Translations under genes and position numbers: made by a program
Assembly: GCA_001001485.1 (NCBI GenBank)
Contig: LCKO01000006.1
Coordinates: 4,350 to 68,349, forward strand
Source of the DNA: Candidatus Collierbacteria bacterium GW2011_GWB2_45_17
GTDB lineage: Bacteria > Patescibacteriota > Microgenomatia > UBA1400 > MFAQ01
Length of the DNA stretch: 64,000 bases
Direction of reading: 5' to 3'
In this document: positions 4,384 to 54,622 of the stretch, in pieces
Layout: each line of letters opens with the position of its first letter
How positions within the stretch are numbered: the stretch's first letter is position 1
Notes under the pieces: model-generated
Database searches by the model: none
Seen by the model: the letters and a program-made list of their open reading frames with translations, nothing else
What the model was told of the DNA's origin: nothing

Positions 4384-5382
4384 CTATCTGGCTAACTTTT
4401 TCGTAAACAGGAAGCCTTGGAGAAAGCGAAGGCCGTACCAAAGATGGGTGATGAAGATGATTGGAATAGAGAGAAGAGATTGGAAGATGTTTTTTGAGAC
4501 GCCGGCTATCCAAATAGCATTGGCAATGAGAGATAGAAAATATCCTTTGAATAACAGCCAGCCAATCCGGTGAAAATAGTTTAATGGTGGTTGGTTTAAC
4601 CAACTAAGAAAAAGCAAGTAAAATATGCCTAGAACCAATAAGGACGGGCCAAAATAGACCAATTGAAGGGAGGTTTGGGGTAGAATTCTGGCAAAGAAGC
4701 CCCGATGAAGACCGAAGTTTCCATTTTGCCTAAGATGAGGGAACAAAATAGGTCGACGGTGATGGTAGACCAAGACTTGGGGATCGTATATAATTTTTTT
4801 ACCTAGTCTGTGAGTGAGATCGAGACAGAGCTTGGTATCTTCACCCGGCCAGAAGTTTGAGTCAAAACCACCAACTTTTTCGAAGTCCAGTTTGCGGACG
4901 GCTAGATTCATAGAAGGATAGTCTTTGACGAATCTTTTTTGGAAAAGCAGAAATCTATATAAATAAGGGCCGGAACCGATGGGAGAGGCAGAAGCCCAAC
5001 CGGAGGCGGCTTCTTGCCAACTGACTCCTGGAGGGGTGACTCCGGGACCACCGACACCGGCAATCATTGAATCCCTAAAGTGTGGCATCATATTTTTTAG
5101 CCAGTCCGGACTAGGAAATGCATCGTCGTCGATAAAGGCCAGGATTTCTCCTTTCGCCATTTTAGCTCCCACATCTCGCTTCTCGGCCGGGCCGACGTAG
5201 TGGCCGAAGTATTTTTGACGAAGTTTTGGGTAATTTAACTCAATCTTATAATCGCAGATCAGAATAATTTCGAAGCGTCGATAGGACTGTTTTTGAATAG
5301 CATCCAAACACTCTGCCAAATATGGATTTTTCTTTTTGTAATCGACAATGATGATAGAGACAATGGGGGGGGCTTTGTTCAT
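4384..5382 (-). CDS. glycosyltransferase family 2 (GT-A) with C-terminal membrane segments
   Basis: 'VSIIIVDYKKKNPYLAECLDAIQKQSY..FEIILICD' GT2 N-terminus with a DDD/DxD region, followed by a hydrophobic C-terminus. Confidence 0.75.
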   Translation of the reverse strand: MNKAPPIVSIIIVDYKKKNPYLAECLDAIQKQSYRRFEIILICDYKIELNYPKLRQKYFGHYVGPAEKRDVGAKMAKGEILAFIDDDAFPSPDWLKNMMPHFRDSMIAGVGGPGVTPPGVSWQEAASGWASASPIGSGPYLYRFLLFQKRFVKDYPSMNLAVRKLDFEKVGGFDSNFWPGEDTKLCLDLTHRLGKKIIYDPQVLVYHHRRPILFPHLRQNGNFGLHRGFFARILPQTSLQLVYFGPSLLVLGIFYLLFLSWLNQPPLNYFHRIGWLLFKGYFLSLIANAIWIAGVSKNIFQSLLSIPIIFITHLWYGLRFLQGFLFTKKLAR

Positions 5383-5463
5383 GGGGTGATTGACTATACG
5401 TGTCTAATGGGTTATATTTCTCTTAGTTAAGGACCAGCGTGAGCGGATTGCCATGGCTGGTCT

Positions 5464-6186
5464 TTACCGTATCTTGAGCCTAAATAAATAACTTGGGTTG
5501 ATTTTTGAGGCTATTTTCCTCCTAATAAATTTGATTTTCACTCTCTGAATTGGAGTCAATTTTGCACTCGAACCCTTATTTTCATAATAAAAGCGAGAAA
5601 TCAATGCCATACTGTCCGCTAGTTCAACATCGGGATCACGATTTCCCTTTGTAACGTAACTTAATGAGGTTACGTGTTCGCGGTATGTAGGACTATTCGA
5701 TTGATGATAATGATGAGCTCTTAATAGAAAGATATCTTGGTTCGTGTCTGATTCGGCTATTATTCTTCCATATAACTTTGTCTTCGACAAATTAAGTTTG
5801 AATTTTCTTAAAAGGGATCTGTAAGAGCGATTTAAAATCGTGTTAAGTTCCCAATTTCTTTTTTGGGCATGTTCCTTATTTACTATAATTGTAACAAAAC
5901 AGATCTTTTCATCGTTAATTACATTTATCAATTCTGACCAAAAATTTGTTTCCGCAACAGGGTCTTTCAGGGAAGCAAAAGGGCCGGCTTTACGGAATAT
6001 GTCACGCCCGTGAAGGATTATTTCAGAGTCACCGAAATATTTATCTTTTATTTTTGAGAGTGATCGATAAATCTTGTTTCTTCTTGATTCCTCGATAATA
6101 ACTCCACAAAGGATAAAATATTTTGATGGATGTCCATACGAAGCCTTGCCCGATTCATCAATAGAGAGTAGTTTGTATTTGTTCAT
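5464..6186 (-). CDS. DUF3800-family protein
   Basis: The N-terminus 'YKLLSIDESGKAS…YFILCGVII' matches the DUF3800 'iDESG' signature. Confidence 0.55.
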   Translation of the reverse strand: MNKYKLLSIDESGKASYGHPSKYFILCGVIIEESRRNKIYRSLSKIKDKYFGDSEIILHGRDIFRKAGPFASLKDPVAETNFWSELINVINDEKICFVTIIVNKEHAQKRNWELNTILNRSYRSLLRKFKLNLSKTKLYGRIIAESDTNQDIFLLRAHHYHQSNSPTYREHVTSLSYVTKGNRDPDVELADSMALISRFYYENKGSSAKLTPIQRVKIKFIRRKIASKINPSYLFRLKIR

Positions 6187-7007
6187 TTATAGCGGAGTTT
6201 GAGATGGGGGTCACCCTCCCAGTGGTCGGATCCATCATCGTCGTAGTAGTGAAGAATATAAGTGCGGTAAATAATGGCTAGGTAATCGATAAAGAAATTT
6301 TGAACCGAAGAAAGTCCAACATTGCTCATAAAATTGCTGGAAATCTCGACTGGTGATTCATAGATCCGCTTAAAACCAACCCTGTTCGCGATGGTGAGCA
6401 TCTCGAGGTCAAAAGCCCAACGCTTGACGATCATCCTGGGGAGGACTTTGACCAGGACGGATCGTTTAAAAACTTTGAGGCCGGTTTGAGTATCTGAAAC
6501 ATTCAAACCAAAAAAGAATCTGGTGGCTCTTTGAACGATATGCGAGAGAATTTTCCTCTGCCAAGGATACTTGACCTTGCTGGCGTGATGCCGCTTACTT
6601 CCGATGATAATATCGGCATCGTACCACTTCATGTGTTCGAGAGCCAAACCAATACCTTTGGCATTGAGGTCTGAACCGGCATCAATAAAAGCGATTATTC
6701 CCCCCTTGGCTCTCGCCATACCAAAACGAACCGCATAACCCTTACCTTTGTTTTGTTTATATGAATAAACCTTGATATCTTGCCGACGCGTTTTTTTGGC
6801 TAGATGATAGGTTTTGTCCCGAGGTGATATACGACCATCAACCACGCAGAGAATCTCGTAGGGGCGATTTAATTGACTCAGGTAGTACTTAATTACAGTA
6901 AGATCGGTGACGATGGTTTTGCAGTTATAGGCAGGAACAATCACCGAAAGAAGCGAAGGATCAACTTTTCCGATTTTTATCTTTTTTCTTTTGGTGACCT
7001 TAGGCAT
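6183..7007 (-). CDS. glycosyltransferase family 2 (polyprenyl-phosphate sugar transferase-like)
   Basis: 'LSVIVPAYNCKTIV…YEILCVVDG' GT2 signature. 4-bp overlap with the downstream gene. Confidence 0.75.
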   Translation of the reverse strand: MPKVTKRKKIKIGKVDPSLLSVIVPAYNCKTIVTDLTVIKYYLSQLNRPYEILCVVDGRISPRDKTYHLAKKTRRQDIKVYSYKQNKGKGYAVRFGMARAKGGIIAFIDAGSDLNAKGIGLALEHMKWYDADIIIGSKRHHASKVKYPWQRKILSHIVQRATRFFFGLNVSDTQTGLKVFKRSVLVKVLPRMIVKRWAFDLEMLTIANRVGFKRIYESPVEISSNFMSNVGLSSVQNFFIDYLAIIYRTYILHYYDDDGSDHWEGDPHLKLRYK

Positions 7008-7031
7008 GAAAGAATTTTACATCCAATAAAG

Positions 7032-8288
7032 TTATTTTGAATGGGGAGTTTGCCGACGGTAAAAATACACGAGCAGGGACAGGACCAAAAGGAAGTGAAT
7101 CGTAAGGTTCGACCAGATAATGCCGGAAAGGGAGGTACGGTTCATATATAAGAGCACTGGCTGAACGATGGTGGCTATCAGGAGCAGGTAGTTCGCCTGA
7201 GGGCGGCCCGTGGCCATGAGGAAAGAAAGGATAAACTGACTGAGAGCAAAGAAGACCATGGAAAATGCGAACAACCACAGATAAGGGGTGATGGCTAAGT
7301 ATTGGGATCCGGAAAGTATCCTGACAATGAAAGCCGGAAAAAGACTAAAAATACCGGCGCCTATGATCCCTAGAGCAAGGATTAGAACACCAAGCTTAAC
7401 CAAGACCGATTTGGCGGAGCCGGTGGCGGTATGACGATGGGTGGCAATGGGGAGGGTGAGAGCGATGAGAGGTGTAAGACCAAAAAGAATCATTCTGCCA
7501 AGAATGGACAGAGCGGAGTAGAGACCGGAGAAGTAAGAATCCGAAAAGGCTCTGACGACCAAAATATCGGTGGAGATGAGAGAAAGAGTACCTAGGGCAA
7601 AGAGGAAACTAAAACCGGTAAATCCTCCGAGTGAAAACCGTGGTGCTTTTTTGACTGTTAGGCGGGGAAAAATAGAGGGCCGGATCCTCCAAAAAATAAT
7701 GAGGGTGCCAATGATACTCGCGATCAGTTGACCAAGAACTGCCCCCGTAGCACCCAGGCCAAGACGGATAAGGAGAATGGATAAAACAATCGATAGAAAA
7801 ATACCGACAAAGCCGACGAGAGAGATAAAAATAAATTTCTGGAAAGCGGTAATGTAGGAAGTAACAATGGTTTGAAAAAGAGAGACAAACATACTAAGAC
7901 CAAGTACCACAAAGGCAGTGGGGTGAGCTTTGAACAAGACTGATAACGGACCGGCAAAGAAAATGAGAGCCAGGCCAAGGGTGACAGTAATGGGACTAAG
8001 AGTCTTCAAGAGATAGTAGAAGAATAGATTGGTAGAGACAGAGTCATCTTTCGCCTTGAAATCGGTGACGAACTTGGTGACCACGGTGGCGACGGTACCC
8101 ATGGGAATACTTAGGATATAGATTAGAGATAGATAAGACAAAAACTCCCCGTACTCGGCCGGGACAAGGAACCTCAGTAAAATCAGATGAAACAAATAGC
8201 GAAAAATGTTTTGGGTGAAGCTCGCCACGTAAAAGACCATAGTGCTTTTGGCTGTGGGAGTGGAGAGAGAATTGAATATTCGTTTCAT
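7032..8288 (-). CDS. oligosaccharide/polysaccharide flippase (Wzx/MOP superfamily)
   Basis: 418 aa with about 12 predicted TM helices. The N-terminal 'FRYLFHLILLRFLVPAEYGEF' is typical of polysaccharide biosynthesis (flippase) proteins. Confidence 0.6.
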   Translation of the reverse strand: MKRIFNSLSTPTAKSTMVFYVASFTQNIFRYLFHLILLRFLVPAEYGEFLSYLSLIYILSIPMGTVATVVTKFVTDFKAKDDSVSTNLFFYYLLKTLSPITVTLGLALIFFAGPLSVLFKAHPTAFVVLGLSMFVSLFQTIVTSYITAFQKFIFISLVGFVGIFLSIVLSILLIRLGLGATGAVLGQLIASIIGTLIIFWRIRPSIFPRLTVKKAPRFSLGGFTGFSFLFALGTLSLISTDILVVRAFSDSYFSGLYSALSILGRMILFGLTPLIALTLPIATHRHTATGSAKSVLVKLGVLILALGIIGAGIFSLFPAFIVRILSGSQYLAITPYLWLFAFSMVFFALSQFILSFLMATGRPQANYLLLIATIVQPVLLYMNRTSLSGIIWSNLTIHFLLVLSLLVYFYRRQTPHSK

Positions 8289-9775
8289 TGGTTTAGCTTG
8301 AAAATATAACTTGTGAAGACGCCGGAAGAGACAGTGGCGATGGGAGTATTCATATCGGAGTAGGAAATGACTTCGGAGATGACCACGCGGTAGAGTAGCT
8401 TTTCACTGGTAAATTCATCCGGATAGATCCAGCCGAAATACTCATCGGCAGAACTACTACTTGGGTGATTGCCGTAGGTTTGGAAGAGATAGCGCCAGCC
8501 ACCATATGGGTGGTATGGCCGAGGATCTTTTCCTACGGTCTCCAAACTAAAGGGGCTATTCCCTATTAGAGGCATAATTTGATTGATTAAATTCCTGCGA
8601 GTAGTAAGACCATATTGGGACTGGGTGGTGGTGAAGATGGTGACAGAGTTTATGGCGATATAGATGGCAAAGAGTGGTGTAAGAAGTTTCCAGCTTACTT
8701 TCTCCAAGAAAAGTCCCAGGACTATCGTAGTCATAATAAAGAAGCCTAGCAGATAGTATTCACAGCCAATGGAGGGGTAGAGGAGATAGAAAAGAAGAAT
8801 GGAAACGATCATCCAAGCGAGAATTTGAAACTTTCTTTCTTTTATCGCCTTCCGGAAAAACCAAACAAAAATCAGGACAACGAAGAGACTGATAAGGAAA
8901 ACTGGTCGAGTCATATCGCCATGGGCTCCTAGACCGTGTTCTTCTTGAATATTGGTGTAGGGCTTGAGGTAAAGTGCTCGACTGATCGAGAACCAAACAT
9001 TGTTTAGGTGATAGATAAGCTGGTCGAGACCAAAGACCGAACCCGAGGTTTTGGGGCTCAGGACATACCGGATGGGACCCAGGAGATCGTCAAAGTTGTG
9101 ATTGATATCGAAGACGATGAGGGGTGAGACGACGGCGAGATAGGAAAAGATAGAGATCATCCAGATAGAAAGAGAAATTTTCTTAATATTTTTCAGAACA
9201 AGGAAAATAACGAGTGGCCAGTAGACCATGAGTGATAGATGAAGGTGGAGGCCGGAAGCCATGATAATAGTGGAGAGAATAAACCAGCGAGTGTCCTTCT
9301 CTGCCCGGTACAAAGAATAAAGAAGCCAAATGGTGACAAAGGCAATGGGAGTGGGATTCCAAAAACGATGATCAAAATAAATTAGTAGCGCCGAAAAGCC
9401 ATAAAGAATAGCGGAAATCAAACCAACTTTTTTGGAAAATATCCTGGAGGCTACGAAATAGAGACTTATGGTAGTGATAATGCCAAAGAAAGAGGAGAAG
9501 TAGGCTAGGACAGAGAGATCACCGTTGCCGATCCAAAATAAAAGTGCGTTGAGATAGGTAAAGGCCGGACCCAGGTAAAAGCCAAAGTTACTGGCGCTCA
9601 CGCCGATCCAGATGGGATGAAAATCTTTGACTTGAGACCAGGCTAAGAGGGCTTGATACTCCTCATCAAAGTTAAAAGAAAACCACTCGGCTGATTTCCA
9701 AAATCGGAGAACTATCAGAAAAATAAACAGAAGAATCGGAATTATTTTGGTCGGAGTAATCTTTAACTTGGCCAC
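8285..9775 (-). CDS. polytopic membrane protein, GT-C-fold glycosyltransferase-like
   Basis: 496 aa. Highly hydrophobic multi-TM protein with an acidic 'FNFDEEYQALLAW' first loop, in an operon of glycosyltransferases. Confidence 0.45.
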   Translation of the reverse strand: MAKLKITPTKIIPILLFIFLIVLRFWKSAEWFSFNFDEEYQALLAWSQVKDFHPIWIGVSASNFGFYLGPAFTYLNALLFWIGNGDLSVLAYFSSFFGIITTISLYFVASRIFSKKVGLISAILYGFSALLIYFDHRFWNPTPIAFVTIWLLYSLYRAEKDTRWFILSTIIMASGLHLHLSLMVYWPLVIFLVLKNIKKISLSIWMISIFSYLAVVSPLIVFDINHNFDDLLGPIRYVLSPKTSGSVFGLDQLIYHLNNVWFSISRALYLKPYTNIQEEHGLGAHGDMTRPVFLISLFVVLIFVWFFRKAIKERKFQILAWMIVSILLFYLLYPSIGCEYYLLGFFIMTTIVLGLFLEKVSWKLLTPLFAIYIAINSVTIFTTTQSQYGLTTRRNLINQIMPLIGNSPFSLETVGKDPRPYHPYGGWRYLFQTYGNHPSSSSADEYFGWIYPDEFTSEKLLYRVVISEVISYSDMNTPIATVSSGVFTSYIFKLNQ

Positions 9776-9790
9776 AGAGATAGTTTAGCA

Positions 9791-10924
9791 TCAGCCGATA
9801 AAGTAGCCACGGGTGAAGAAGATAATTGAAAGTATAGAAAAAACTATAGTGGAAAAATAATAAACGTATTTAGTAAATGGGTGCTGGCGCTCTAACCAGT
9901 AGGCCAAATACATAAAGACTGGAAACATGACAAGTGTGTATCGCGGAACACTGGCAAAAGTGCCGGAGAAGCTGGGAAGGAGATAGGAAAGTAAGACAAA
10001 TAGCCAATAGGAAAAGCGTATTTTTTTGAAGGAAAAGATTAAGACACCCAAGACTAGTGTGGCAGAGAGAAGTTCCAATACGACTGTAAAAAATAAGGGG
10101 TCCCAGTGATCGGTAAAAATAAGCATTTTGGCGTAGCGAAAAAAGACCTGATGAAGCAGAATTAGCTTATTGACCGTCCGGCCGGTAAAGTTTGTTTGAA
10201 TTGTGGCGAAAAACAAGGCGTCTCCCGTCTTGAGAAATTGGAAACGCATAAATGACAGAAGCCCTAATGGTGGAAGGGTCAACCAGATGGCAGATGGATT
10301 TAAACATTTCTTGATATCTTTTCCGTAATAAACCCAGAATTCGTAGATAAGAGCCGGCCAGAGAAAAATGCCGGTGATTTTGGTGGCAGACGCGATAGCA
10401 GCCGCTATACAAGCCAAGAGGAATTGATTGCGGCGAGCAAAGTAAAAGCTGAGGACCGCCAGAAGTAGAAAAAGAGATTCTGTGTATACAGAACCAAAAA
10501 AGAAAGCTGTGGGAAAAAGCAAAAGGAGATAGATGGTTGATTTGGCAATTTTGGATTTGAAATCCAGAGCGACTAGTTTATAAAGGAAATAGAGAGCCAA
10601 AATAATACAGAGATGAGAAATAATTAGTCCGGAGGCGAGATAGTTATCGAAAAAATTGAAAGTGCGAATGGTCCAGGGGTAGATAGGGAAGAATGCATAG
10701 TCCATGTCTGTCTTGTGTTGGTAGCCGTAACCAAACTCGGCCAAGTCCAGATAATGAAGCCCGTCGAAGTTGGACCACATGGAAAAAAGATTACTCGCTG
10801 AAGGTATCTCGGTGAGATTGGTGAATCTGGTGCGTGGGGTCAGAAGAAACATGGCCGGAAGGGCGATGAGAATAATCAGCAGTCTCCAACCGAGGACGAG
10901 TTTAAGGATTTCTTTGATTGTCAT
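9791..10924 (-). CDS. membrane mannosyltransferase-like protein (PIG-V/GT-C-like)
   Basis: 377 aa multi-TM. 'WSNFDGLHYLDLAEFGYGY' resembles the WDxxHYxxIAxxGY motif of PIG-V/GT76-type mannosyltransferases. Confidence 0.45.
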   Translation of the reverse strand: MTIKEILKLVLGWRLLIILIALPAMFLLTPRTRFTNLTEIPSASNLFSMWSNFDGLHYLDLAEFGYGYQHKTDMDYAFFPIYPWTIRTFNFFDNYLASGLIISHLCIILALYFLYKLVALDFKSKIAKSTIYLLLLFPTAFFFGSVYTESLFLLLAVLSFYFARRNQFLLACIAAAIASATKITGIFLWPALIYEFWVYYGKDIKKCLNPSAIWLTLPPLGLLSFMRFQFLKTGDALFFATIQTNFTGRTVNKLILLHQVFFRYAKMLIFTDHWDPLFFTVVLELLSATLVLGVLIFSFKKIRFSYWLFVLLSYLLPSFSGTFASVPRYTLVMFPVFMYLAYWLERQHPFTKYVYYFSTIVFSILSIIFFTRGYFIG

Positions 10925-10936
10925 TTAATTTATATA

Positions 10937-11018
10937 GATTGCTTCGTCGTTTCACTCCTCGCAATGACGGGTGGAGTGAGATTGCCACGTCGCGATTACA
11001 CTCTTCGCAATGACGTGG
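10937..11018. repeat. two tandem module A copies at the 3' end of the GT4 gene
   Basis: 'agattgcttcgtcgtttcactcctcgcaatgacgg' followed by 'gagattgccacgtcgcgattacactcttcgcaatgacgtgg'. Confidence 0.8.
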
Positions 11019-12027
11019 AAAGAATGTGTTGATAAACGGCGAGGGTGAGTTTGGCGGTTTTGGCCCAAGAAAAGTCATGGGAACGTTCTTTGGCAAGATT
11101 AATTTGTTTCAATTTGGCTTCGGGAGAAAGTTTTAAAGCTTTTTTGATAGCTTTTTCCATGGATTTTAATTTCCTCGGACTAAAGGTAATCGCCTCTTCA
11201 TGATATATTTCCGGAAGGCTAGATTTTTTGGAACTGGCTATCAAGCAACCGGCCGTCATGGCTTCCAGTAACGGCAAACCAAAACCCTCGTACAAGGACG
11301 GCTGAACATAAAGCGAGGCTAGGTGAAACATGGCGTTAAAATCTTCATCCGGGACGAAACCCGGGTAACTGATGTGGTTGTAGACTTGTAAACGAACCAA
11401 ATCGATTAATTCCGGGTGAACCGGTTTAATAATTTCTTGGAGCATACCCTTACCAACGATTACTAATGGTATTCCGAGTCGATCCGTAACTTCAGCTAGT
11501 GAGGGGAGATTTTTATTTGGATTTGGCCCAGCGGCAAGCGTGAGGATAAATTTATCGGGAAGATGATATTTTTCTTTGATTTCGGCAATCTTTGAAGAAG
11601 AGGGGGGCTTTTTGTAGATCTCTGCTACCGCCAATGGGGTAACAAAGATTTTTTCTGGGGAGATACGAAAATATTTTTCGATATCTTTTTTGGAGTTTTC
11701 GGAGTCGGTAATGATGGCTGAAACCGATCTCAGAGACCACCACTGACGTAATAGATTGAGAGTACCCTTGATACCCTTAGGATACCGGCTGGACATAACG
11801 AGGGGTGTCAGATCATGAATAGTGACGATGGTGGGTTTTTCCTTTTTTACCGGAAAGGTAGCGTAAAAAAGATCAAAGAAGGGGAAGTGAATAATATCCG
11901 GATTTTTATCCGTCAAATCTATATCAGGAAGTTTAGCTAATGCTCTGGATAGATTTTCGGAATAAACTCCAACTCCCCTACCAGCGGAATGATCGCCTCC
12001 ATTTAGAAATACTTTAATTTTTTCCAT
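10996..12027 (-). CDS. glycosyltransferase family 4 (GT-B, 'group 1')
   Basis: 'EGFGLPLLEAMTAGCLIASS' EX7E-type C-terminal domain. Its last 6 codons and stop lie inside a copy of repeat module A. Confidence 0.8.
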   Translation of the reverse strand: MEKIKVFLNGGDHSAGRGVGVYSENLSRALAKLPDIDLTDKNPDIIHFPFFDLFYATFPVKKEKPTIVTIHDLTPLVMSSRYPKGIKGTLNLLRQWWSLRSVSAIITDSENSKKDIEKYFRISPEKIFVTPLAVAEIYKKPPSSSKIAEIKEKYHLPDKFILTLAAGPNPNKNLPSLAEVTDRLGIPLVIVGKGMLQEIIKPVHPELIDLVRLQVYNHISYPGFVPDEDFNAMFHLASLYVQPSLYEGFGLPLLEAMTAGCLIASSKKSSLPEIYHEEAITFSPRKLKSMEKAIKKALKLSPEAKLKQINLAKERSHDFSWAKTAKLTLAVYQHILSTSLRRV

Positions 12028-12898
12028 AATCTTCGTCTTTGTAGAGTTCCCAGAGCTTCATATAGGAAAAGGCGTGATGAAAACCTGAGTAAAGAGAGAA
12101 TACAAACCCTGGAAAACCATCCATAAAACCACGATAGCGGATATACAGACTAAGGAAAGTACCTAAAGGTTTAAAGAATAAATAATTTAGGGTGTTGAAA
12201 AAATTGATTTTGACGCCATCTCTTTTATAGAAACCGGCTTGGAGACTGGAGTAACGATTCTCTCGGAGTAAGTAGCGAGAAAAATTGGGGGTGGCAAAGT
12301 GATCCAGGTCAGAACGTAACCAACCGACACTTCCTTTAACAATCATTTGCTCATGGACATCTTTGGCGGGAAGTTCGGCCTTACCACGTTGGAATAGTCT
12401 GATCACCGGATCCGGGTACTGTCCAGCGTTCTTTAAATATCGATTGAGAAAGAAATTTTTTCTGGGTAACCAGTAGGCGGCGGCCGGTTTGGTGAGACGA
12501 TACGGCTCAGGAAAAAAGGGGAGAAATTTGTTGATGGTTGATTTTAATGGTGAAAGCCAACTGTCGTAACCAAAGTAGTCGCCATCGAGAATACCGATAA
12601 TTTCCTTTTGCATTACCGGCGTTATTCGCTCGTCAGCATCTAGCTGAAGAATCCAGTCAGACTTGGCTTCGCGATTGGCAATGTCTTTTTGGATGTGGAA
12701 GACCGGATTGTTTTCTCTGAGTAGCACCTTGGCACCCAGCTTGCGGGCGATCTCAGCCGTCTTGTCCGTAGAATGGCCATCCACCACGATGATTTCATCT
12801 ACCCAGCCCTTGACCGAGTTTAAGCAGTCGGCGATACAGTCCTCGTTGTTATACGAGGCTAAAGTGACCGAGATAGTTTGACGTTTAGATTTTTTCAT
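12014..12898 (-). CDS. glycosyltransferase family 2
   Basis: 'ISVTLASYNNEDCIADCLNSV…DEIIVVDGHSTDKT' GT2 signature. Confidence 0.75.
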   Translation of the reverse strand: MKKSKRQTISVTLASYNNEDCIADCLNSVKGWVDEIIVVDGHSTDKTAEIARKLGAKVLLRENNPVFHIQKDIANREAKSDWILQLDADERITPVMQKEIIGILDGDYFGYDSWLSPLKSTINKFLPFFPEPYRLTKPAAAYWLPRKNFFLNRYLKNAGQYPDPVIRLFQRGKAELPAKDVHEQMIVKGSVGWLRSDLDHFATPNFSRYLLRENRYSSLQAGFYKRDGVKINFFNTLNYLFFKPLGTFLSLYIRYRGFMDGFPGFVFSLYSGFHHAFSYMKLWELYKDEDYGKN

Positions 12899-27631: not shown

Positions 27632-27634
27632 TAA

Positions 27635-31355: not shown

Positions 31356-31356
31356 A

Positions 31357-32262: not shown

Positions 32263-32305
32263 TGTCTTAATTATACTGCCTATCGGTACGGTAAAAAAAT
32301 CCCCT

Positions 32306-33223: not shown

Positions 33224-33226
33224 GGG

Positions 33227-44797: not shown

Positions 44798-45913
44798 ATG
44801 AAACGAACGTATTTATTCTTGTTGTCGGCCTTGTTTACGTTGGCAATATGGATTCCTTTTGGACTAAAAATGAAACTTCCCCTTTGGGGTTTGGACTTCT
44901 CCGAAGGGACTAAAATCCTTTGGCAAAATTACGACGGACCAAACTACTTGATTGTAGAAAAAACTTGGTACGACAAAGAAATGATTAAGACTTCGTTCTC
45001 GACTACTGAACCGACCGAGTATTTCCCGGCACACTTTCCTCTTTATCCGGCGGTAATTTCTGTATTTGATCCATTTCTAAAAGGTCCAAGCGCCATGCTC
45101 TTAGCCACTCTTATTGGATCCGTTCTCTGTTTCTTGATGTTTTATAAATATTTATTGGAATTTAAATTAAGTGTTGATCCGTTCTGGCTGACTTTAGTAT
45201 TTATGATTTTTCCCGCCAGATGGTTGGCTCTAAGAGGGGTGGGCTCACCCGAACCATGGTTTATTTTGTTTATTCTGGCTAGTCTTTTTTACTTTAAAAA
45301 AGAGAAATACATACTGGCAGGAATATTTGGAGCTTTAGCTCAACTAACAAAAAGCCCGGCAGTGATACTATTGGCCGCTTACGGAATATTTGCTATTGTT
45401 CAGTCAATTAAAGAGAAAAAGATTCAGTGGAAATATTGGCCTCTGCTACTTCAGGCTTTAGCTGTCGTTGGTTTATTTTTGTTTTTCAAAATCAGAACCG
45501 ATGACTTATTGGCTTATCTCCATAGTGGTGATAATATTCATCTTTTTTGGCCACCGTTTAGTGTGTTTGCTCCAAAGGGGCAAGTATGGGTGGGAAATTT
45601 CTGGCTGGAAGATATTATCTGGACCTGGTTGGTTTTCGGAATTGGAATTATGAAACTCAAAGAAAAGAAATTGGATATTGAGTATTACTTTGCCGGATTA
45701 TTTTTTCTGTCGACTCTCTTTATTGCTCATAGGGATATCAGTAGATATATTTTACCCGCGACTCCATTAGTTCTTATCGGTTGGGATAATCTGGTACACA
45801 AAAAAGAATTCAAATTAATTGCTTGCTTACTGATATTCCCGATCTTTCTGTTTACTTGGAACTTCTTGCTGAACAACACCGCCCCAATAGCCGATTGGGC
45901 ACCATATTTGTGA
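44798..45913 (+). CDS. polytopic membrane protein (GT-C/DUF2029-like)
   Basis: 371 aa, multi-TM. Only large plus-strand gene within the locus, divergent from the GT2 gene at 44062. Confidence 0.4.
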   Translation: MKRTYLFLLSALFTLAIWIPFGLKMKLPLWGLDFSEGTKILWQNYDGPNYLIVEKTWYDKEMIKTSFSTTEPTEYFPAHFPLYPAVISVFDPFLKGPSAMLLATLIGSVLCFLMFYKYLLEFKLSVDPFWLTLVFMIFPARWLALRGVGSPEPWFILFILASLFYFKKEKYILAGIFGALAQLTKSPAVILLAAYGIFAIVQSIKEKKIQWKYWPLLLQALAVVGLFLFFKIRTDDLLAYLHSGDNIHLFWPPFSVFAPKGQVWVGNFWLEDIIWTWLVFGIGIMKLKEKKLDIEYYFAGLFFLSTLFIAHRDISRYILPATPLVLIGWDNLVHKKEFKLIACLLIFPIFLFTWNFLLNNTAPIADWAPYL

Positions 45914-46000: not shown

Positions 46001-46354
46001 GTGATAAGTACAAAGCAAAGACTGGAAGATAGATTGCCAATTTTATTACGGTCGGTCGTTCGATTGTGCAAAAAATATCAGACTGAATTAATTGCCAAAA
46101 GAATTATTCCACAGCTCGTCGCTTCAATCGGGTCGATTGGTGCAAACTATCAAGAGGCTACGGCCGCGATGAGTAAGAAGGACTTTGTTAAATGTCTTAA
46201 GATCGCACGAAAGGAAGCTCGAGAAAGTATCATTTGGTTAGAAGGAATGGACGAATTGTCTGATGGTGCAGATAAACAAATTCCAGAAATAACTCAAGAG
46301 GTAAAAGAGGTGAGTTATATTCTTACAAGTATTATCTCGAAAACTGAGTCTTAA
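46001..46354 (+). CDS. four-helix-bundle protein (TIGR02436-like)
   Basis: 'IGSIGANYQEATAAMSKKDFVKCLKIARKEARESIIWLE' core. Second copy of this family in the window. Confidence 0.8.
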   Translation: MISTKQRLEDRLPILLRSVVRLCKKYQTELIAKRIIPQLVASIGSIGANYQEATAAMSKKDFVKCLKIARKEARESIIWLEGMDELSDGADKQIPEITQEVKEVSYILTSIISKTES

Positions 46355-46366: not shown

Positions 46367-46409
46367 CTTGTCTTGAGTTCTAGATTCCTCGAGTTCTTGA
46401 GTTCTTATC
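46367..46409. repeat. module B block in inverted orientation, right flank of the four-helix-bundle gene
   Basis: 'cttgtcttgagttctagattcctcgagttcttgagttcttatc' is the reverse complement of the left-flank motif. Confidence 0.8.
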
Positions 46410-47583
46410 GCTTTTTCCAAATCACGAGGTTGTAGATGAACCAGTTGAGGGGGACGGTGATCGCGAAGACGGCGAGGACGAGGAAGAGGGTGCGGTATTG
46501 GTCACCGAATACTTGTGTACCGACGCCGATCACCAGGCTGGGCAGAACAATCCCCGAGACGACGGAGCTGAGATTGAAGGTGGTAAATTTTTTGACTAAG
46601 GTGGTACCCCAGATCAGCTTTTCGTTTTTGAAGGTCCAAAGGTTATTGAGAATAAAGTTGCTGATGATCGAAAATTCGGCGGCAAGGGCATTTGCTAATG
46701 TATTTCTAACCCCAACGACGCTGATCAAATTGCTAAGAAGCTTGGCAAAGATATCGAGGCCGACCTTGTTGATGACAAAGCCAAAAAGACCGATAGTGCC
46801 AAATTTGATAAACTTTTGGGTGGTGGAGTCGTTCCATCTGAGTAAAACAGCTGTTCTGAGAATATCTTTGGCTGTCTGCGGTTCAATCTTGGACTCACCC
46901 GTTTCTCTGAGGCCAAACTGTAAAGGGATTTCCTTAATCTTGGCACCTAATTGAATGGTCTTGTAAATAAACTCCAGTTTGTAGCCAAAACTTCTGGAAT
47001 ACAAATGATCCATGTCCATGGTGTCGACAAAGCCTTTGATACGGGTAGCCTTTAGGCCGGTGGTGGGGTCGGTAAGGCGGAAAAAGTTTTTGGTTGGAAA
47101 GAACATGAAAATCCTTGCAGCTAAGCCACCTACTTCACTAAAGAAAAGTCTCTTGAAACCCCAACCTTTGGGATTACTACCACCTTTGATCTTGCGGGAG
47201 CCCAAGACATAATCATAACCTTCATCAATAGCCTGAAGCATGATGGGGATGGTGGTGGGCGGGTGCTGAAAATCACTATCGAACTCGATGACTACATCGG
47301 CGTCGTGCTTACTCATAGCTCTTCTAAAACCCTTTACATAAGCTGCACCAATCCCCTCTTTTTTGGTTTCGATCAGAAGATCAAGATCTGGGTATTGCTT
47401 TTGTTTGTCTTGAATTATTTTCCAAGTACCATCTGGGGACTTGCCATCGACGTAGAGTAAAACACATTTCCAGTTGGAGATTTTGGGAAAGGTTTTGATA
47501 AAAAGATAATCGATCATCCTCGCAGTGTGCCCTGCTTCATTGTAAGTGGGGATGACAATGACGGCGACGGGGAGTTGCTTCAT
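46405..47583 (-). CDS. GT2 polyprenyl-phosphate glycosyltransferase fused to a C-terminal GtrA-like membrane domain
   Basis: N-terminal 'VAVIVIPTYNEAGH…' GT2 region. The C-terminal ~120 aa holds 4 TM helices of GtrA type ('FIKFGTIGLFGFVIN…'). Confidence 0.7.
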   Translation of the reverse strand: MKQLPVAVIVIPTYNEAGHTARMIDYLFIKTFPKISNWKCVLLYVDGKSPDGTWKIIQDKQKQYPDLDLLIETKKEGIGAAYVKGFRRAMSKHDADVVIEFDSDFQHPPTTIPIMLQAIDEGYDYVLGSRKIKGGSNPKGWGFKRLFFSEVGGLAARIFMFFPTKNFFRLTDPTTGLKATRIKGFVDTMDMDHLYSRSFGYKLEFIYKTIQLGAKIKEIPLQFGLRETGESKIEPQTAKDILRTAVLLRWNDSTTQKFIKFGTIGLFGFVINKVGLDIFAKLLSNLISVVGVRNTLANALAAEFSIISNFILNNLWTFKNEKLIWGTTLVKKFTTFNLSSVVSGIVLPSLVIGVGTQVFGDQYRTLFLVLAVFAITVPLNWFIYNLVIWKKR

Positions 47584-47868: not shown

Positions 47869-47880
47869 TATAATTGGAGT

Positions 47881-48525: not shown

Positions 48526-48534
48526 ATTTATATA

Positions 48535-48581: not shown

Positions 48582-48590
48582 AAAATAGAT

Positions 48591-48886: not shown

Positions 48887-48894
48887 ACGAAGGA

Positions 48895-49665: not shown

Positions 49666-49668
49666 AGT

Positions 49669-50322: not shown

Positions 50323-50338
50323 GGATAAATTTTTATTA

Positions 50339-51296: not shown

Positions 51297-51412
51297 ACTA
51301 GAAGTGTTTAAGTAGTCGGCTTTAAGGAGTCGGTACTCTGGATAATATTGACGGTATTGACCGTATTGAAAGTCGTAATCTGACTTGGCGGAGGCACTAC
51401 TAGTATAACTGA

Positions 51413-52315
51413 TTATATTTTAGGCAGGCTCAGACCTTGCCCCAAAAGAAGTTCGACTACAGTCTGCCAGGAGGAAAAATGAAGATCGAGAGTTTCTTCG
51501 GTGATTTTAGTTTTTAGACCACCCCAAACTGGATAGCGATTTGGATTGGTTTGGGTTTTTAAGAATTCGTGAACAGAGATAGATTTAATGACAGAAGAGT
51601 CAGCACTGAGATGATCAATGACGAAGGTAATAAGTTCATAGGGAGTGGTGGTGTCGGAAGAACAGTGGAAAACCCCGTGAGAGCCGGTCTCGATAATTCT
51701 ATCGAGAGCTTCGGCAATTTCGTCGATAAAGGCAATGCAGATTTGCTGATCCCTGAACAGGGGGTACATTTTGCCATCGGCGTATTTTTTGAGAGCTCCT
51801 CTAATGTAGTCAGATTTCGGTTCAAATTTGACACGGACTGGGTAAATAATTCTAAGGATGGTTCCACCATTGTCTCTGACTATTTTTTCGGCTCTATTTT
51901 TGGTCCAACCGTACCAAGTAAGTTTTTCGCTGGAGTCGGGTGGTGTTTCTGGTTCTTCGTATGGACCGGGCTGACTTAAGTCCCCAGGAAAGACCATGTC
52001 GGTAGAAATTTGGATGAAGTTTTTTGATTTGAAAGAATCGGAAAGGTTTTTTGTCCCCTCAACGTTCACCTGCCACGCCGGTCCGGTTTCATCTCCGGAT
52101 TGGGCTTCGGAAGCGTTGACATCGGTAAAAGCGGCGAAGTTGACGATCCAGTCAGGATTTTCTTTTTCCAGTAACTGACTGACTTGTTCTTTATTGGTAA
52201 GGTCAAATTGGGGGTATTCGGGAGTAACAAAGTTAAATTTATCGGAGTATTTTTCGATGAAGCGGGAACCGACTAAACCACTGGCGCCGGTGACAAGGAT
52301 TTTGAGTTTGGACAT
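51413..52315 (-). CDS. rmlD: dTDP-4-dehydrorhamnose reductase
   Basis: 'KILVTGASGLVGSRF' Rossmann N-terminus and the RmlD-like substrate-binding region. Confidence 0.7.
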   Translation of the reverse strand: MSKLKILVTGASGLVGSRFIEKYSDKFNFVTPEYPQFDLTNKEQVSQLLEKENPDWIVNFAAFTDVNASEAQSGDETGPAWQVNVEGTKNLSDSFKSKNFIQISTDMVFPGDLSQPGPYEEPETPPDSSEKLTWYGWTKNRAEKIVRDNGGTILRIIYPVRVKFEPKSDYIRGALKKYADGKMYPLFRDQQICIAFIDEIAEALDRIIETGSHGVFHCSSDTTTPYELITFVIDHLSADSSVIKSISVHEFLKTQTNPNRYPVWGGLKTKITEETLDLHFSSWQTVVELLLGQGLSLPKI

Positions 52316-52318
52316 AAC

Positions 52319-52882
52319 TTACATTATCTCAGGTTTGACGAAATCAAAAGAAACAACCTTTGGATCGATACGACATTCCTGGGTATTTTCGTTGGCGACG
52401 AAGAATTGATCGGTGAAGTAATTGAGTGTGACTGAATCATTATTGGGATTGATGAAGCCATGAGCCACGCCGGCCGGGATATAAACAAATTTATCGGCCG
52501 AGAGAATAATCTTCATCTTCGTCAGATAAGAAGATGATTCAGGACGATAATCGATCAGACCCAGAATGATGGTGCCATTGGTAGTCCAGATTTCATTTTG
52601 ACTCGGATGAATGTGCCAAAAACGTTTGGTTTTGGGAGCCAAAAATGAGGTATTGGCTTGAACGGGGCGGAATTTGATGCCCAAGTCTTTAAGAGTCACG
52701 GTATACCCTTGGGGATCAAGACGGATGGTCTCTTTGAACCAGCCACCGTAGTCATCGGCGAAGGTGCTGACCTTAACGACGTGGACATCTTGGATACCTT
52801 CAGCCTTCTCGTACGTTTGACGGTAGAGTTTAATCTTTTTGGGTAGGGCAATGGATCTATTTTTAATTCGTTTAAGTCCCAT
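52319..52882 (-). CDS. rmlC: dTDP-4-dehydrorhamnose 3,5-epimerase
   Basis: Cupin fold. 'FWHIHPSQNEIWT…YIPAGVAHGFINPNND' RmlC motifs. Confidence 0.8.
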   Translation of the reverse strand: MGLKRIKNRSIALPKKIKLYRQTYEKAEGIQDVHVVKVSTFADDYGGWFKETIRLDPQGYTVTLKDLGIKFRPVQANTSFLAPKTKRFWHIHPSQNEIWTTNGTIILGLIDYRPESSSYLTKMKIILSADKFVYIPAGVAHGFINPNNDSVTLNYFTDQFFVANENTQECRIDPKVVSFDFVKPEIM

Positions 52883-54622
52883 TTATGGTTGATGATTGTA
52901 AAAGTTTTCTGAGGTAATTTTCATATCTTGCCACCACCATTTGTTTGCTCGGTACCAAGCGACGGTTTCTTTTAAGCGTTTGTAAAAGGGTTCTTTTGGC
53001 TCCCAACCAAGCTCTTTATTGATTTTTTTCCAACTGACGGCGTAACGACGATCGTGTCCCGGTCTATCCGTGATGTATTCAATTCGGTTAGGGGGGAGTT
53101 TCATGATCTTGAGAATCTTTTTGGCCACTTGAAGATTGCTGACGTCTTTTTTCATGCCACCGACGGTGTAGCTACCGCCGATCTTGCCTTTGAGTAGAAC
53201 CATTTCGATGGCCCGACAGTGATCTTCCACATACATCCAGTCGCGGATGTACCGTCCGTCACCGTAGATTAAAATATTTTTTCCGTCTAAAAGATTGGTG
53301 ATAGCTCGGGGAATAAATTTTTCGGTATCCTGGAAAGGGCCGAAGTTGTTACTGCAGTTGGTTATGGTCACCGGCAAACCAAAGGTGGTATGGTAAGACA
53401 TAACCAAGTGATCGGAGCTGGCTTTGGAGGCTGAGTAAGGCGAGTTTGGATTGTATTTAGTTTTGCCGTTAAATTTATTTTTTGAGTTTAGTTTCAAAGC
53501 TCCGAAGACTTCATCGGTTGAGATATGGTGGAATCTGGAGCCATACTTTTTGGCGGCTTCCAAGAGAGTCTGGGTTCCCAACACATTGGTTCTGGTAAAA
53601 ATCATGGGGTCTTCGATGGAGCGATCGACATGGGTTTCAGCCGCAAAATGAACAACCATATCCACCTGAGAGACTAGGCTGTCGACGATTTTTGGATCGG
53701 TGATATCCCCTTTGACGAAAGTGTAATTTTGATTATTTTCAATATCTTTCAGCGATTCTTGATGTCCGGCATAAGTAAGACTATCTAGATTGATGATTTG
53801 ATCGGCGGGGTGTTTCTTTAGCCAGTAGTGAATAAAGTTTGAGCCGATAAAGCCGGCACCGCCGGTGACCAAAAGTCTCCTGCCAGACTTAACTTTTTTG
53901 GCTTTTTCGGCCATGTGCTGGCCGGCATGCAAGAGGCTATCAAAAGTACCGGCATCCTGCCAGTAACTATCAAAGACATAAGCCTTTAACTCTCCCCTCT
54001 CTAAGTAGGTATTGTTGATACTGTCCTGACCATTAATTTCCAGTTCTCCCCGCGGTGATGGCTTGAGATTCTTGGCCATGTCGACCACCCGATGATCGTA
54101 AGTGTATAAACCGACAGAAACATACATAGACTTGGGTTGGCTGGGTTTTTCTTCGATAGACAAAACCTGGTTATCTTTGTCTAGTTCGACGACACCAAAT
54201 CTTTTGACTTCTTCAAGATTGTCTAGCTTCTTGACGTAGATTTGTCCACCGGACTTGAAGGACTTGATTTGTTCGGAAAAATCTTCATCAATAATGTTAT
54301 CTCCGAGAATCATGGTGACGTCATCGTTATCAAGAAAATCTTCTCCAATAATAAATGCCTCAGCCAAGCCGCGTGGTTCTTTTTGAATGGCGTAACTAAA
54401 ATGGACGCCAAATTCCTCACCGGTTCCGAGTAAGTTTAAAAATAGGCCTGAGTTTTCCGGAGCCAAGACAATAAGAATGTCCTTTATCCCCGCTCTGACC
54501 AGAGTTTCAATAGAATAGTAGATCATGGGTTTGTTGTAAACAGGCAAGAGCTGTTTACTGATAACCCACGTCAAAGGCCGCAGTCTGGTCGCACGTCCAC
54601 CGGCTAGGATAATTCCTTTCAT
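52883..54622 (-). CDS. rmlAB: fusion protein: glucose-1-phosphate thymidylyltransferase (RmlA, N-terminal) + dTDP-glucose 4,6-dehydratase (RmlB, C-terminal)
   Basis: N-terminus 'MKGIILAGGRATRLRPLTWVISKQLLPVYNKPMIYY' matches RmlA. From about residue 240, 'LLVTGGAGFIGSNFIHYWL…YSASKASSDHLVMSY' matches RmlB. Confidence 0.8.
   Translation of the reverse strand: MKGIILAGGRATRLRPLTWVISKQLLPVYNKPMIYYSIETLVRAGIKDILIVLAPENSGLFLNLLGTGEEFGVHFSYAIQKEPRGLAEAFIIGEDFLDNDDVTMILGDNIIDEDFSEQIKSFKSGGQIYVKKLDNLEEVKRFGVVELDKDNQVLSIEEKPSQPKSMYVSVGLYTYDHRVVDMAKNLKPSPRGELEINGQDSINNTYLERGELKAYVFDSYWQDAGTFDSLLHAGQHMAEKAKKVKSGRRLLVTGGAGFIGSNFIHYWLKKHPADQIINLDSLTYAGHQESLKDIENNQNYTFVKGDITDPKIVDSLVSQVDMVVHFAAETHVDRSIEDPMIFTRTNVLGTQTLLEAAKKYGSRFHHISTDEVFGALKLNSKNKFNGKTKYNPNSPYSASKASSDHLVMSYHTTFGLPVTITNCSNNFGPFQDTEKFIPRAITNLLDGKNILIYGDGRYIRDWMYVEDHCRAIEMVLLKGKIGGSYTVGGMKKDVSNLQVAKKILKIMKLPPNRIEYITDRPGHDRRYAVSWKKINKELGWEPKEPFYKRLKETVAWYRANKWWWQDMKITSENFYNHQP

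Follow-up and report, generated by a model that had tools for sequence, protein, structure and literature searches.

A conserved GT-C-rich glycosyltransferase operon in Candidatus Collierbacteria and its probable role in assembling a cell-envelope glycoconjugate

What does a bacterium with a genome of about 1 Mb (related contigs are typically 0.6-1.09 Mb) build with a tightly packed run of glycosyltransferase genes that takes up about 4% of it? We asked this of a 64,000-nt stretch (hereafter the window) of contig LCKO01000006.1 from Candidatus Collierbacteria bacterium GW2011_GWB2_45_17, a member of the Microgenomates in the Candidate Phyla Radiation (CPR). CPR bacteria are usually described as metabolically minimal and as probably living attached to hosts; to our knowledge, their surface chemistry is essentially uncharted. 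We consider the locus to be, probably, a lineage-conserved operon for the assembly and decoration of at least one cell-envelope glycoconjugate by a multiplexed form of multi-component transmembrane glycosylation, with most of the work done at the outer face of the cytoplasmic membrane. Coordinates are positions in the window, and genes are designated by the first coordinate of their open reading frame (ORF; Table 1).

Thirty-one consecutive genes lie on the minus strand between 4384 and 44778, with a largest gap of 81 bp and 4-bp overlaps at eleven junctions. Fifteen of them are candidate GT-C glycosyltransferases, 10 encode GT2 enzymes, 2 encode GT4 enzymes, and 2 encode MOP/Wzx flippases; the remaining two, unrelated to glycans, encode a DUF3800 protein and oligoribonuclease. 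The first-pass annotation, which described nearly all genes from 4.4 to 45 kb as minus-strand and glycan-related, is thus borne out (29/31 are glycan genes). Beyond 44778 follow a divergent GT-C gene, a gene for a 23S rRNA intervening-sequence (23S-IVS) protein, and a GT2 with a membrane domain of the GtrA/dolichol-phosphate-mannose synthase (DPMS) type. The whole 43.2-kb block (4384-47583) encodes 16 GT-C, 11 GT2, and 2 GT4 enzymes and 2 flippases. The unidirectional run that had been proposed stands, but its extent of about 50 kb does not: the rml genes for dTDP-sugar synthesis lie 3.8 kb from the glycosyltransferase block, with TrmD, a nitroreductase, a SurA-like protein, and one unassigned gene between them, so the contiguous locus is 43 kb long. 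Similarly, the large GT-C set is real with 16 rather than about 17 members, the 13 GT2/GT4 enzymes agree with an estimate of about 12, and the two flippases are both of the MOP/Wzx type.

The GT-C set was checked with profile hidden Markov models. In a Pfam scan of every window ORF of at least 100 aa, 10/16 candidates reach the gathering score of PMT_2, PMT, GT87, YfhO, or PTPS_related, and the remainder are placed by paralogy or predicted structure, which upholds the earlier assignment of these polytopic proteins to GT-C. The below-threshold proteins 12895, 14577, and 16244 are full-length paralogs (E 1e-35 to 1e-71) of the two copies in the same tandem array that pass. For 33227 and the plus-strand 44798, Pfam matches are absent or below threshold, and the membrane parts of their AlphaFold2 models match only GT-C structures. 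We regard 25361, with a YfhO match at the C-terminus only, and 21349, with 31% identity over about 170 aa to its GT87-like neighbor, as the weakest assignments; the precomputed MptA_B_family match of this GT87/MptA-B-like pair is weak. In a comparison of ortholog profiles with hhalign, both 39792 and 42578 join the tandem family (98-99% probability), 42578 also joins 37981 (94%), and 37981 and 39792 are linked to the tandem family (78-99%). A PDB sequence search with 17989 and the tandem-family profile returned nothing useful (ArnT, E 0.16).

A hydropathy scan of the 16 candidates gives mostly 5-14 transmembrane (TM) segments; being crude, it finds too few in 21349 (3 segments) and in 44798 (5, compared to about 11 membrane helices in its model). 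In all 16, the loop that follows TM1 contains an acidic residue (Asp or Glu). The motifs around it comprise a D-E pair in the tandem copies, FDEE, VDEA, GDEG, HDD, N(F/Y)DG, and GHD, the D-E pair occurring in all five tandem copies and also in three more GT-Cs of the PMT_2 type. Within the three families that we aligned, these residues are invariant, namely D33 and E34 in 13 tandem-family sequences, D46 in the 44798 family, and D574 in the 33227 family.

The five tandem GT-Cs share 28-35% identity over their full length; two of them reach PMT_2/PMT gathering scores. Their conserved D-E pair, which follows TM1, is part of a common motif, DE-x(2-3)-GY-x-A-(Y/W)-S. All five have one-to-one orthologs in the same order in a relative's locus, L043 (74-88% identity), and three do in another, L042 (50-61%). 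That one-to-one orthologs persist though the paralogs are only about 30% identical indicates that these are old paralogs with putatively distinct, maintained, non-redundant specificities, rather than a recent amplification. A 7-bp repeat, present four times in GT-C 16244-17992, was considered as a phase-variation switch and rejected, as it is identical in six independent assemblies.

We modeled 33227 and 44798 with AlphaFold2 from alignments of database homologs and compared the models to the PDB with Foldseek. The top 26 PDB matches of 44798 are all GT-C enzymes (STT3, PglB, ALG9, ArnT, Pmt4, GPI-MT-I, Emb, and ALG3), with PimE at rank 29, and 371-aa orthologs are present in most relatives in which the region is covered. 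The true start of 33227 lies about 17 codons downstream of the ORF start, and its model has an ectodomain (residues ~25-480), an extra TM helix, and a GT-C domain (~490-1090). The best match of the ectodomain is 3LM3 (E 4e-12), which is a putative glycoside hydrolase/deacetylase; CE4-type deacetylases and ArnD come next. The GT-C half matches STT3A/B, AglB, DPY19, and AftA (E 3e-8 to 2e-4); the best membrane-domain matches are STT3A/B and AglB (E 3e-8 to 5e-7), with modest TM-scores of 0.35-0.46 on the target. The first external loop bears the invariant motif GFWGPNGHD. The WWDxG motif is missing, as neither WW nor W.D occurs in the protein, and a profile search of PDB sequences recovered only 3LM3 (E 0.0024) and no oligosaccharyltransferase (OST), nor is there a Pfam STT3 match. 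On this basis, 33227 is, as modeled, OST-like in fold and not a member of the OST family. PF12979, listed among precomputed matches for some 33227 homologs, was not reproduced with the current Pfam copy, and hhalign of ortholog alignments assigned no family to 33227 (13%) or to 7032 (4%).

Directly upstream of 33227 is the Wzx gene 36492. In more distant relatives, the gene after Wzx encodes a 550-600-aa protein that matches the GT-C half only, and in one relative genome the ectodomain is encoded as a separate gene. We detected 265 homologs of 33227, none of which has a protein name, and all with a source label are from CPR bacteria. Because the adjacency persists in relatives without the ectodomain, the conserved pair appears, from gene order, to be Wzx plus a 33227-type GT-C, with the ectodomain fusion a presumptive feature of the Collierbacteria branch. 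The second flippase, 7032, is divergent. It has no Pfam match of its own, and 16/29 orthologs (50-78% identity), in a sample enriched for members with precomputed matches, match Polysacc_synt or Polysacc_synt_3; the JGI name is 'O-antigen/teichoic acid export membrane protein'. These ortholog matches led us to reject 7032-8288 as a seventeenth GT-C. Each flippase belongs to a cytoplasmic module of one GT4 and several GT2s: module I spans 29488-37991 and module II spans 4384-12898. The GT4/GT2 set 29488-33223 has colinear orthologs in about 25 species, and the GT4 10996 and GT2 12014 orthologs in L043 are 88% identical.

Four GT2s (44062, 41281, 6183, and 46405) form one paralog group and resemble polyprenyl-phosphate-sugar synthases, with ArnC, GtrB, and DPMS as best PDB matches. 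The first-pass annotation had called many GT2s synthase-like; four are, with 46405 convincing and the other three below the cut-offs. Protein 46405 matches Pyrococcus furiosus DPMS (5MLZ) with E 6.6e-40 over residues 6-351. Given this full-length match, what had been described as a GT2 fused to GtrA is a GT2 with a GtrA-like domain in its native place, the membrane domain of an archaeal-type dolichol-phosphate-mannose synthase. The other three have no TM helices and align at full length with ArnC, GtrB, DPMS, or PpgS, below every NCBIfam cut-off. GacI of Streptococcus pyogenes is likewise a GT-A enzyme without TM helices and needs a membrane partner (PMC8035078). The proposed pairing of synthase-like GT2s with GT-Cs is seen as adjacency at three places (44062 with 42578, 41281 with 39792, and 46405 with 44798) and is conserved in relatives; in the window, the last pair is interrupted by the 23S-IVS protein gene 46001-46354. 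This co-location suggests that the GT-Cs of the locus would use lipid-phosphate-linked sugar donors.

We compared relatives using the Wzx gene as an anchor and one genome per species, for a total of 31 CPR loci. Some 25 Collierbacteria species carry a colinear counterpart of the segment 29488-47583, with 55-87% amino-acid identity, and genomes labeled Woesebacteria contain a looser version at 40-50%. Relatives with full 21-kb flanks have 5-8 GT-C-like genes around Wzx (median 7). The distal half (tandem GT-Cs, GT2, GT4, small GT-C, second flippase, and two GT2s) is conserved at 50-88% in L042 and L043, and a single 681-kb contig of one relative carries both halves, separated by 5.3 kb, so that the whole locus of about 50 kb is present there. 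Gene content varies within this frame. The patch 25361-29467 is occupied by non-orthologous genes in relatives, including the locus L045; a close relative has a 531-aa GT-C and two reverse-strand genes in place of 27635 and the YfhO-like 25361. GT-C 8285-9775 is an extra gene that is absent at this position in L042 and L043, and in several species only distantly related GT-Cs (22-31% identity) follow the GT4 gene.

Could the array instead be an assembly chimera, or a decaying set of duplicated pseudogenes without function? The contig is of metagenome-assembled origin, and small indels distinguish it from near-identical assemblies. In DPQI01000004.1, about 200 bp of GT2 12014-12898 are missing (12262-12464), which shortens the product to 170 aa. 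In LCKV01000006.1, GT-C 16244-17992 differs by 74 bp close to its 3′ end (16290-16363; 552 versus 582 aa), and 12895-14580 is split into 471 + 85 aa; this assembly also shows 19 gap positions. Such differences could reflect strain heterogeneity or assembly error. Set against this, the window proteins are identical on GCA_003539025.1 (the assembly of DPQI01000004.1), on the Rifle groundwater metagenome-assembled genomes GCA_001001635.1 and GCA_001001715.1, and on assemblies from ENA, JGI, and Logan. Counting NCBI as well, GT-C 17989 is found on more than 23 contigs, and the same gene order recurs across them and across about 30 species. None of the 16 GT-C ORFs is disrupted, each keeps its acidic motif, and the locus orthologs (63-88% identical) are as conserved as the adjoining TrmD (77-85%). 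Independent assemblies and the colinearity in related species thus leave a chimera or a pseudogene array hardly credible; the sign of a chimera named in the first-pass annotation, a locus absent or fragmented in all close relatives, is not seen.

Many of the loci compared (L011, L015, L018-L020, L024, L028-L031, and L034-L038) come from records titled 'uncultured Pseudomonadales', 'Gammaproteobacteria', or 'Spirochaetia bacterium'. Their Wzx proteins are 66-87% (Collierbacteria-grade) or 48-62% (more distant) identical to that of the window. Based on gene order and this 48-87% identity, we take the taxonomy in such titles to be mislabeled.

How might these parts work together? GT-C enzymes use lipid-phosphate-linked donors at the extracytoplasmic face, DPM1-, ArnC-, and GtrB-type GT2s make lipid-phosphate sugar donors, and MOP/Wzx proteins flip lipid-linked oligosaccharides. 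We propose that the GT4 and GT2 sets would build lipid-(P)P-linked oligosaccharides, probably with dTDP-6-deoxyhexose (rhamnose) supplied by the rml genes, and that the two MOP proteins would flip them outward. The OST-like GT-C next to Wzx (33227-36550) would then transfer or polymerize the flipped unit, and the hydrolase/deacetylase-fold ectodomain fused to it may act in glycan trimming or binding. In parallel, the four synthase-like GT2s would make polyprenyl-phosphate monosaccharides. From up to four such donors, the other GT-Cs, about 15 in number, would add single sugars, each with its own linkage or acceptor specificity. As acceptor we favor a glycopolymer or lipoglycan, since the PMT-2-domain GT-Cs of Firmicutes act on wall polymers, PMT_4TMC is absent, and sixteen enzymes exceed the need of O-mannosylation; a wall polysaccharide, surface proteins, or both are possible.

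Several observations weigh against this reading. The Pfam scan of window ORFs of at least 100 aa found no WecA/WbaP-type initiating phosphoglycosyltransferase, Wzy, WaaL, chain-length regulator, or LCP ligase; Glycos_transf_4, Bac_transf, Wzy_C/O-antigen polymerase, and Wzz gave no match, although the genes could lie elsewhere in the genome. Essential steps must thus be encoded elsewhere or by unrecognized proteins. The window also has no stand-alone GtrA-type flippase for polyprenyl-phosphate sugars, the only GtrA-like TM domain of the block being part of the DPMS 46405. Curated NCBIfam cut-offs are reached by no GT-C of the locus and by none of the nine GT2/GT4 proteins scanned, so the sugar and acceptor specificities are all inferred. 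The YfhO match of 25361 is confined to the C-terminal 66 residues. Finally, CPR envelopes are poorly known, and we know of no polymer to which the locus could be matched.

Known systems offer partial precedents. The closest are multi-component transmembrane glycosylation systems such as GtrA/B/C, CsbB-GtcA-YfhO, GtlA/B, CsdAB/CD/EF of Lactococcus lactis, and GacI/J/K/L of S. pyogenes, in which a GT-A enzyme makes a polyprenyl-phosphate sugar that, once moved by a flippase, is the donor for sugar transfer outside the cell by a polytopic GT-C of PMT_2, YfhO, or unassigned type (PMC8035078). In monoderm bacteria, the characterized PMT_2-type GT-Cs glycosylate lipoteichoic acid, wall teichoic acid, or wall polysaccharides; GacK provides a precedent for a Wzx-type flippase, and a rhamnose polysaccharide is a known acceptor (PMC8035078). 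As in our locus, the GT2 gene adjoins the GT-C gene, and a GT-A without TM helices and a Wzx-type flippase are both precedented. The organisms tabulated in that review, in contrast, have one GT-C per system and at most about three systems per genome (PMC8035078). The Collierbacteria locus differs from them in having 16 GT-Cs and 4 synthase-like GT2s in one operon, no stand-alone GtrA, and an archaeal-type DPMS.

Mycobacterial and corynebacterial synthesis of lipomannan, lipoarabinomannan, and arabinogalactan (Ppm1; PimE, MptA/B/C of GT87; AftA-D; EmbA-C) uses many non-redundant GT-Cs, one per linkage, with polyprenyl-phosphate-sugar donors at the outer membrane face. The locus recalls it in the GT87/MptA-B-like 22478 and 21349 and in the structural neighbors AftA, Emb, and PimE. 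However, mycobacterial GT-C genes (~15-20) are scattered over a 4.4-Mb genome, compared to one 43-kb operon here; no genes for decaprenyl-phosphate-arabinose or a phosphatidylinositol mannoside anchor were seen, and sequence identity is negligible. STT3/AglB/PglB enzymes resemble the GT-C half of 33227 at the fold level, and its gene directly follows Wzx, a type of enzyme known to deliver lipid-PP-oligosaccharide donors; unlike them, 33227 has an N-terminal hydrolase/deacetylase-fold ectodomain and not the C-terminal peptide-binding domain of OSTs. Wzx/Wzy O-antigen and capsule loci resemble ours in combining Wzx flippases with sets of GT2 and GT4 enzymes, in their linkage to rml genes, and in having a patch that varies between species within a conserved frame, but here GT-Cs dominate, and the window has no recognizable initiating phosphoglycosyltransferase, Wzy, Wzz, or WaaL. 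From the Arn pathway, ArnC is the best PDB match of 44062, the 33227 ectodomain has ArnD among its matches, and ArnT is among the GT-C matches. Lipid A, on which the Arn pathway acts, is not an expected acceptor, and ArnT-type lipid A modification was rejected on the grounds that the window lacks the ArnA/ArnB genes for Ara4N synthesis and that CPR bacteria are generally taken to be monoderm.

The first-pass annotation leaned toward PMT-type protein O-mannosylation of the kind known in Actinobacteria. In such a dedicated system, PMT-like GT-Cs would mannosylate Ser/Thr in Pro/Thr (PT) linkers of secreted or S-layer proteins, for example those of 57830-58981, and the other GT-Cs would elongate the glycan outside. 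The support for this lean is confined to the Pfam names PMT and PMT_2. Four GT-Cs do exceed the PF02366 (PMT) gathering score of 22.7 (19655, 32.6 bits; 27635, 30.3; 39792, 25.6; 42578, 23.5), but this model has no specificity for protein-modifying enzymes, and PF02366 and PF13231 also include ArnT. Members of the GT39 PMTs (eukaryotic Pmt1-7, actinobacterial Pmt/Rv1002c) have a loop-1 DE motif comparable to the D-E pair described above, and the DPMS encoded in the locus fits their Dol/polyprenyl-phosphate-mannose donor. Against this, the C-terminal PMT module PMT_4TMC and the MIR domain of eukaryotic PMTs have no match at E ≤ 0.01 in any protein scanned, Pmt4 and Pmt1/2 are only mid-ranking structural matches, and the best neighbors of the two modeled GT-Cs are not specific to PMT but spread over OST, ALG, ArnT, PimE, and Emb. 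There is, in its favor, a surface protein with a pair of PT linkers 3 kb beyond rml, the GT-C adjoining Wzx is OST-like, and GT2 32306 has a weak similarity to GmaR and SunS, which are protein glycosyltransferases. That surface protein, however, is the single PT-rich protein in the window and lies outside the operon. One PMT suffices for actinobacterial protein O-mannosylation, compared to sixteen GT-Cs here, and the analogy to Actinobacteria has no taxonomic basis, the organism being a CPR bacterium. PMT-2-domain GT-Cs in Table 2 of PMC8035078 glycosylate wall polymers. Protein O-glycosylation as the dedicated role, though possible, is not specifically supported, and we think it unlikely.

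It is also conceivable that the block is an island of several independent systems, each a GT2 synthase with one or two GT-Cs and its own acceptor, brought together by the co-directional packing of streamlined CPR genomes. The two separate GT4+GT2+MOP modules, at least three synthase/GT-C pairs, and the presence of the housekeeping gene orn and of a DUF3800 gene inside the block would fit this, as would the modular gain and loss seen in the replaced patch 25361-29467 and the extra gene 8285-9775. On the other hand, the order of about 25 genes is kept across species down to 55% identity, and in part about 45%, which goes beyond what streamlining alone would explain; four synthase-like GT2s for sixteen GT-Cs imply shared donors, and the tight gene overlaps suggest co-translation. 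We therefore judge a mere co-location of independent systems to be quite improbable, and favor a single envelope-glycan operon.

A bolder version of the envelope-glycan reading is doubtful, in our view, and we put it forward tentatively. The 33227-type GT-C that follows Wzx in Microgenomates might represent an unrecognized class of en-bloc transferase or polymerase that handles lipid-PP-oligosaccharides flipped by Wzx, replaces Wzy, WaaL, or PglB and, together with the ~15 other GT-Cs, builds a mycobacterial-style surface heteropolymer. If so, the 33227 ectodomain would edit the glycan, and the heteropolymer would serve these episymbiont-like cells as their main surface determinant, with a bearing on attachment to hosts and recognition by phages.

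Outside the contiguous block, the rml genes probably encode a dTDP-6-deoxyhexose pathway, with L-rhamnose as the predicted product; as RmlA, RmlC, and RmlD score below their equivalog cut-offs, another dTDP-6-deoxyhexose is possible. The RmlA part of the fusion is shortened at the C-terminus (237/286 positions of the TIGR01207 model). All four families were recognized by Pfam on the same strand as annotated at first, but the interval given then, 52883-51413, held only C and D. The Thr/Pro-rich secreted protein once proposed as a possible acceptor is real and has its linkers; it is a candidate by composition only. The proposed search for other S/T/P-rich proteins, run on the window ORFs, returned this protein alone. 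A CAP/SCP-domain protein of the cysteine-rich secretory family, with predicted TM segments (54907-55743, minus strand), lies between rml and the TsaE/VanZ genes.

At its distal end, beyond the interval given in the first-pass annotation, the locus has a conserved B12-binding radical SAM gene, 1298-2878, with orthologs that are 93% identical in L043 (15015-16577) and 52% identical in L042 (13067-14524), where it directly adjoins the last GT2. The window copy is separated from the block by genes for a 23S-IVS protein and a Gp49/HigB-like toxin. As HpnJ acts on a glucosamine moiety, the radical SAM protein may be an accessory sugar-modifying enzyme of the locus. Past this gene, the locus runs on in L042 (14538-21263) and L043 (16969-21254) with further GT2 genes and with genes for an epimerase, SAM methyltransferases, a 506-aa nucleotidyltransferase, a SIS+HAD fusion, and a GT4; the window organism appears to have a version that is shorter at the distal end.

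Other features of the neighborhood stand apart from the glycan genes. Two 23S-IVS protein genes (2871-3230, minus; 46001-46354, plus), an AbiEii toxin gene (395-1288, plus), and a Gp49/HigB-like toxin gene (3506-3988, plus) flank or interrupt the block, and these small mobile or toxin-antitoxin-type genes coincide with breaks in synteny to relatives. A second DUF3800 gene lies at 59206-59841 (minus), and a counterpart of the embedded copy is absent at that position in L042 and L043. The orn gene overlaps both neighbors by 4 bp and keeps its operon position in every relative examined. Where the minus-strand run begins, its first gene and the plus-strand GT-C are 19 bp apart (44778/44798), so the promoters of both must overlap coding sequence or lie elsewhere. 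Residues 394-510 of 27635-29467 resemble the NTF2-like N-terminal domain of PBP2a/MecA (31.5 bits), and this ectodomain might point to an association of the enzyme, or of its acceptor, with the cell wall.

Table 1. Features of the window, in order of position
Feature	Coordinates	Strand	Evidence and remarks
B12-binding radical SAM enzyme, HpnJ/BchE-like	1298-2878	-	Pfam Radical_SAM + B12-binding; HpnJ 166 bits, below cut-off
GT2, last gene of co-directional run	4384-5382	-	Glycos_transf_2 56 bits; orthologs in L042, L043
DUF3800	5464-6186	-	Embedded in glycosylation operon
Short GT2, polyprenyl-phosphate-sugar synthase-like	6183-7007	-	GT2 68 bits; best NCBIfam PpgS, full length, below cut-off
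MOP/Wzx-type flippase, second, divergent	7032-8288	-	Ortholog Pfam matches; ~12 TM segments predicted
GT-C, PMT_2 type	8285-9775	-	PMT_2 36 bits; FDEE after TM1
Small GT-C, 377 aa, Gpi18/PIG-V-like	9791-10924	-	PMT_2 27 bits; NFDG motif; 26% identical to 44798
GT4 + GT2, module II, cytoplasmic	10996-12027, 12014-12898	-	Glycos_transf_1 65 bits, GT2 64 bits
Five tandem GT-Cs, 554-582 aa	12895-14580, 14577-16247, 16244-17992, 17989-19653, 19655-21319	-	
Two GT87/MptA-B-like GT-Cs	21349-22491, 22478-23647	-	GT87 26.4 bits (gathering score 25); 31% mutual identity
Two GT2s	23644-25327	-	GT2 71 and 84 bits; L045 orthologs 91-97% identical
YfhO-like polytopic protein, 756 aa	25361-27631	-	YfhO 30.5 bits (gathering score 28.5); ~12 TM segments
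GT-C, PMT/PMT_2, C-terminal MecA_N/NTF2-like ectodomain	27635-29467	-	PMT_2 37 bits, PMT 30 bits
GT4 + three GT2s, module I, cytoplasmic	29488-30570, 30549-31535, 31357-32262, 32306-33223	-	Pfam
Signal anchor + glycoside-hydrolase/deacetylase-fold ectodomain + OST-like GT-C, 1,090 aa	33227-36550	-	AlphaFold2 pLDDT 89.3
MOP/Wzx flippase	36492-37991	-	Polysacc_synt_3 183 bits; NCBIfam MOP flippase 132 bits, below cut-off
GT-C, PTPS_related/PMT_2	37981-39762	-	Pfam at or above gathering scores
GT-C, PMT_2/PMT	39792-41312	-	Pfam at or above gathering scores
Short GT2, polyprenyl-phosphate-sugar synthase-like	41281-42039	-	GT2 75 bits; PgfS, ArnC, DPhHxTase-like below NCBIfam cut-off
Oligoribonuclease Orn	42036-42581	-	NF003765 205 bits, cut-off 106 (NCBIfam equivalog, passed)
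GT-C, PMT_2	42578-44065	-	PMT_2 46 bits
ArnC/GtrB/DPM1-like GT2	44062-44778	-	GT2 114 bits; PDB best ArnC E 2.5e-15, GtrB, DPMS, full length
Small GT-C, 371 aa, Gpi18/PIG-V-like	44798-45913	+	AlphaFold2 pLDDT 89.7; divergent transcription
Archaeal-type polyprenyl-phosphate-mannose synthase	46405-47583	-	Pfam GT2 + GtrA_DPMS_TM; PDB 5MLZ
RmlD	51413-52315	-	Pfam; 114 bits, below NCBIfam equivalog cut-off 224
RmlC	52319-52882	-	Pfam; 41 bits, below NCBIfam equivalog cut-off 156
RmlA-RmlB fusion, 579 aa	52883-54622	-	Pfam; RmlB 456, above cut-off 365; RmlA 272, below 361
Surface-anchored protein, two Pro/Thr linkers	57830-58981	-	Signal peptide, C-terminal TM anchor; weak PEGA match

We found nothing relevant in the open-access literature on an expansion of GT-Cs or glycosyltransferases in CPR, Patescibacteria, Microgenomates, or Collierbacteria; this absence is not proof, and it agrees with the earlier statement that the system is uncharacterized in the lineage. 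All components are of known kinds, and the locus is an extension of known glycosylation logic rather than a new principle. What is unusual is the presence of 16 GT-Cs in one conserved operon of a genome of about 1 Mb, a GT-C density per Mb several times that of mycobacteria, together with the pairing of Wzx with a GT-C that carries a deacetylase-fold fusion (a new GT-C architecture) and an archaeal-type DPMS in a bacterium. The locus provides a defined gene set for metatranscriptomics and a basis for lectin or antibody probes in enrichment. That a conserved operon occupies this share of so small a genome suggests that an elaborate, extracellularly assembled glycan is central to the biology of Collierbacteria.

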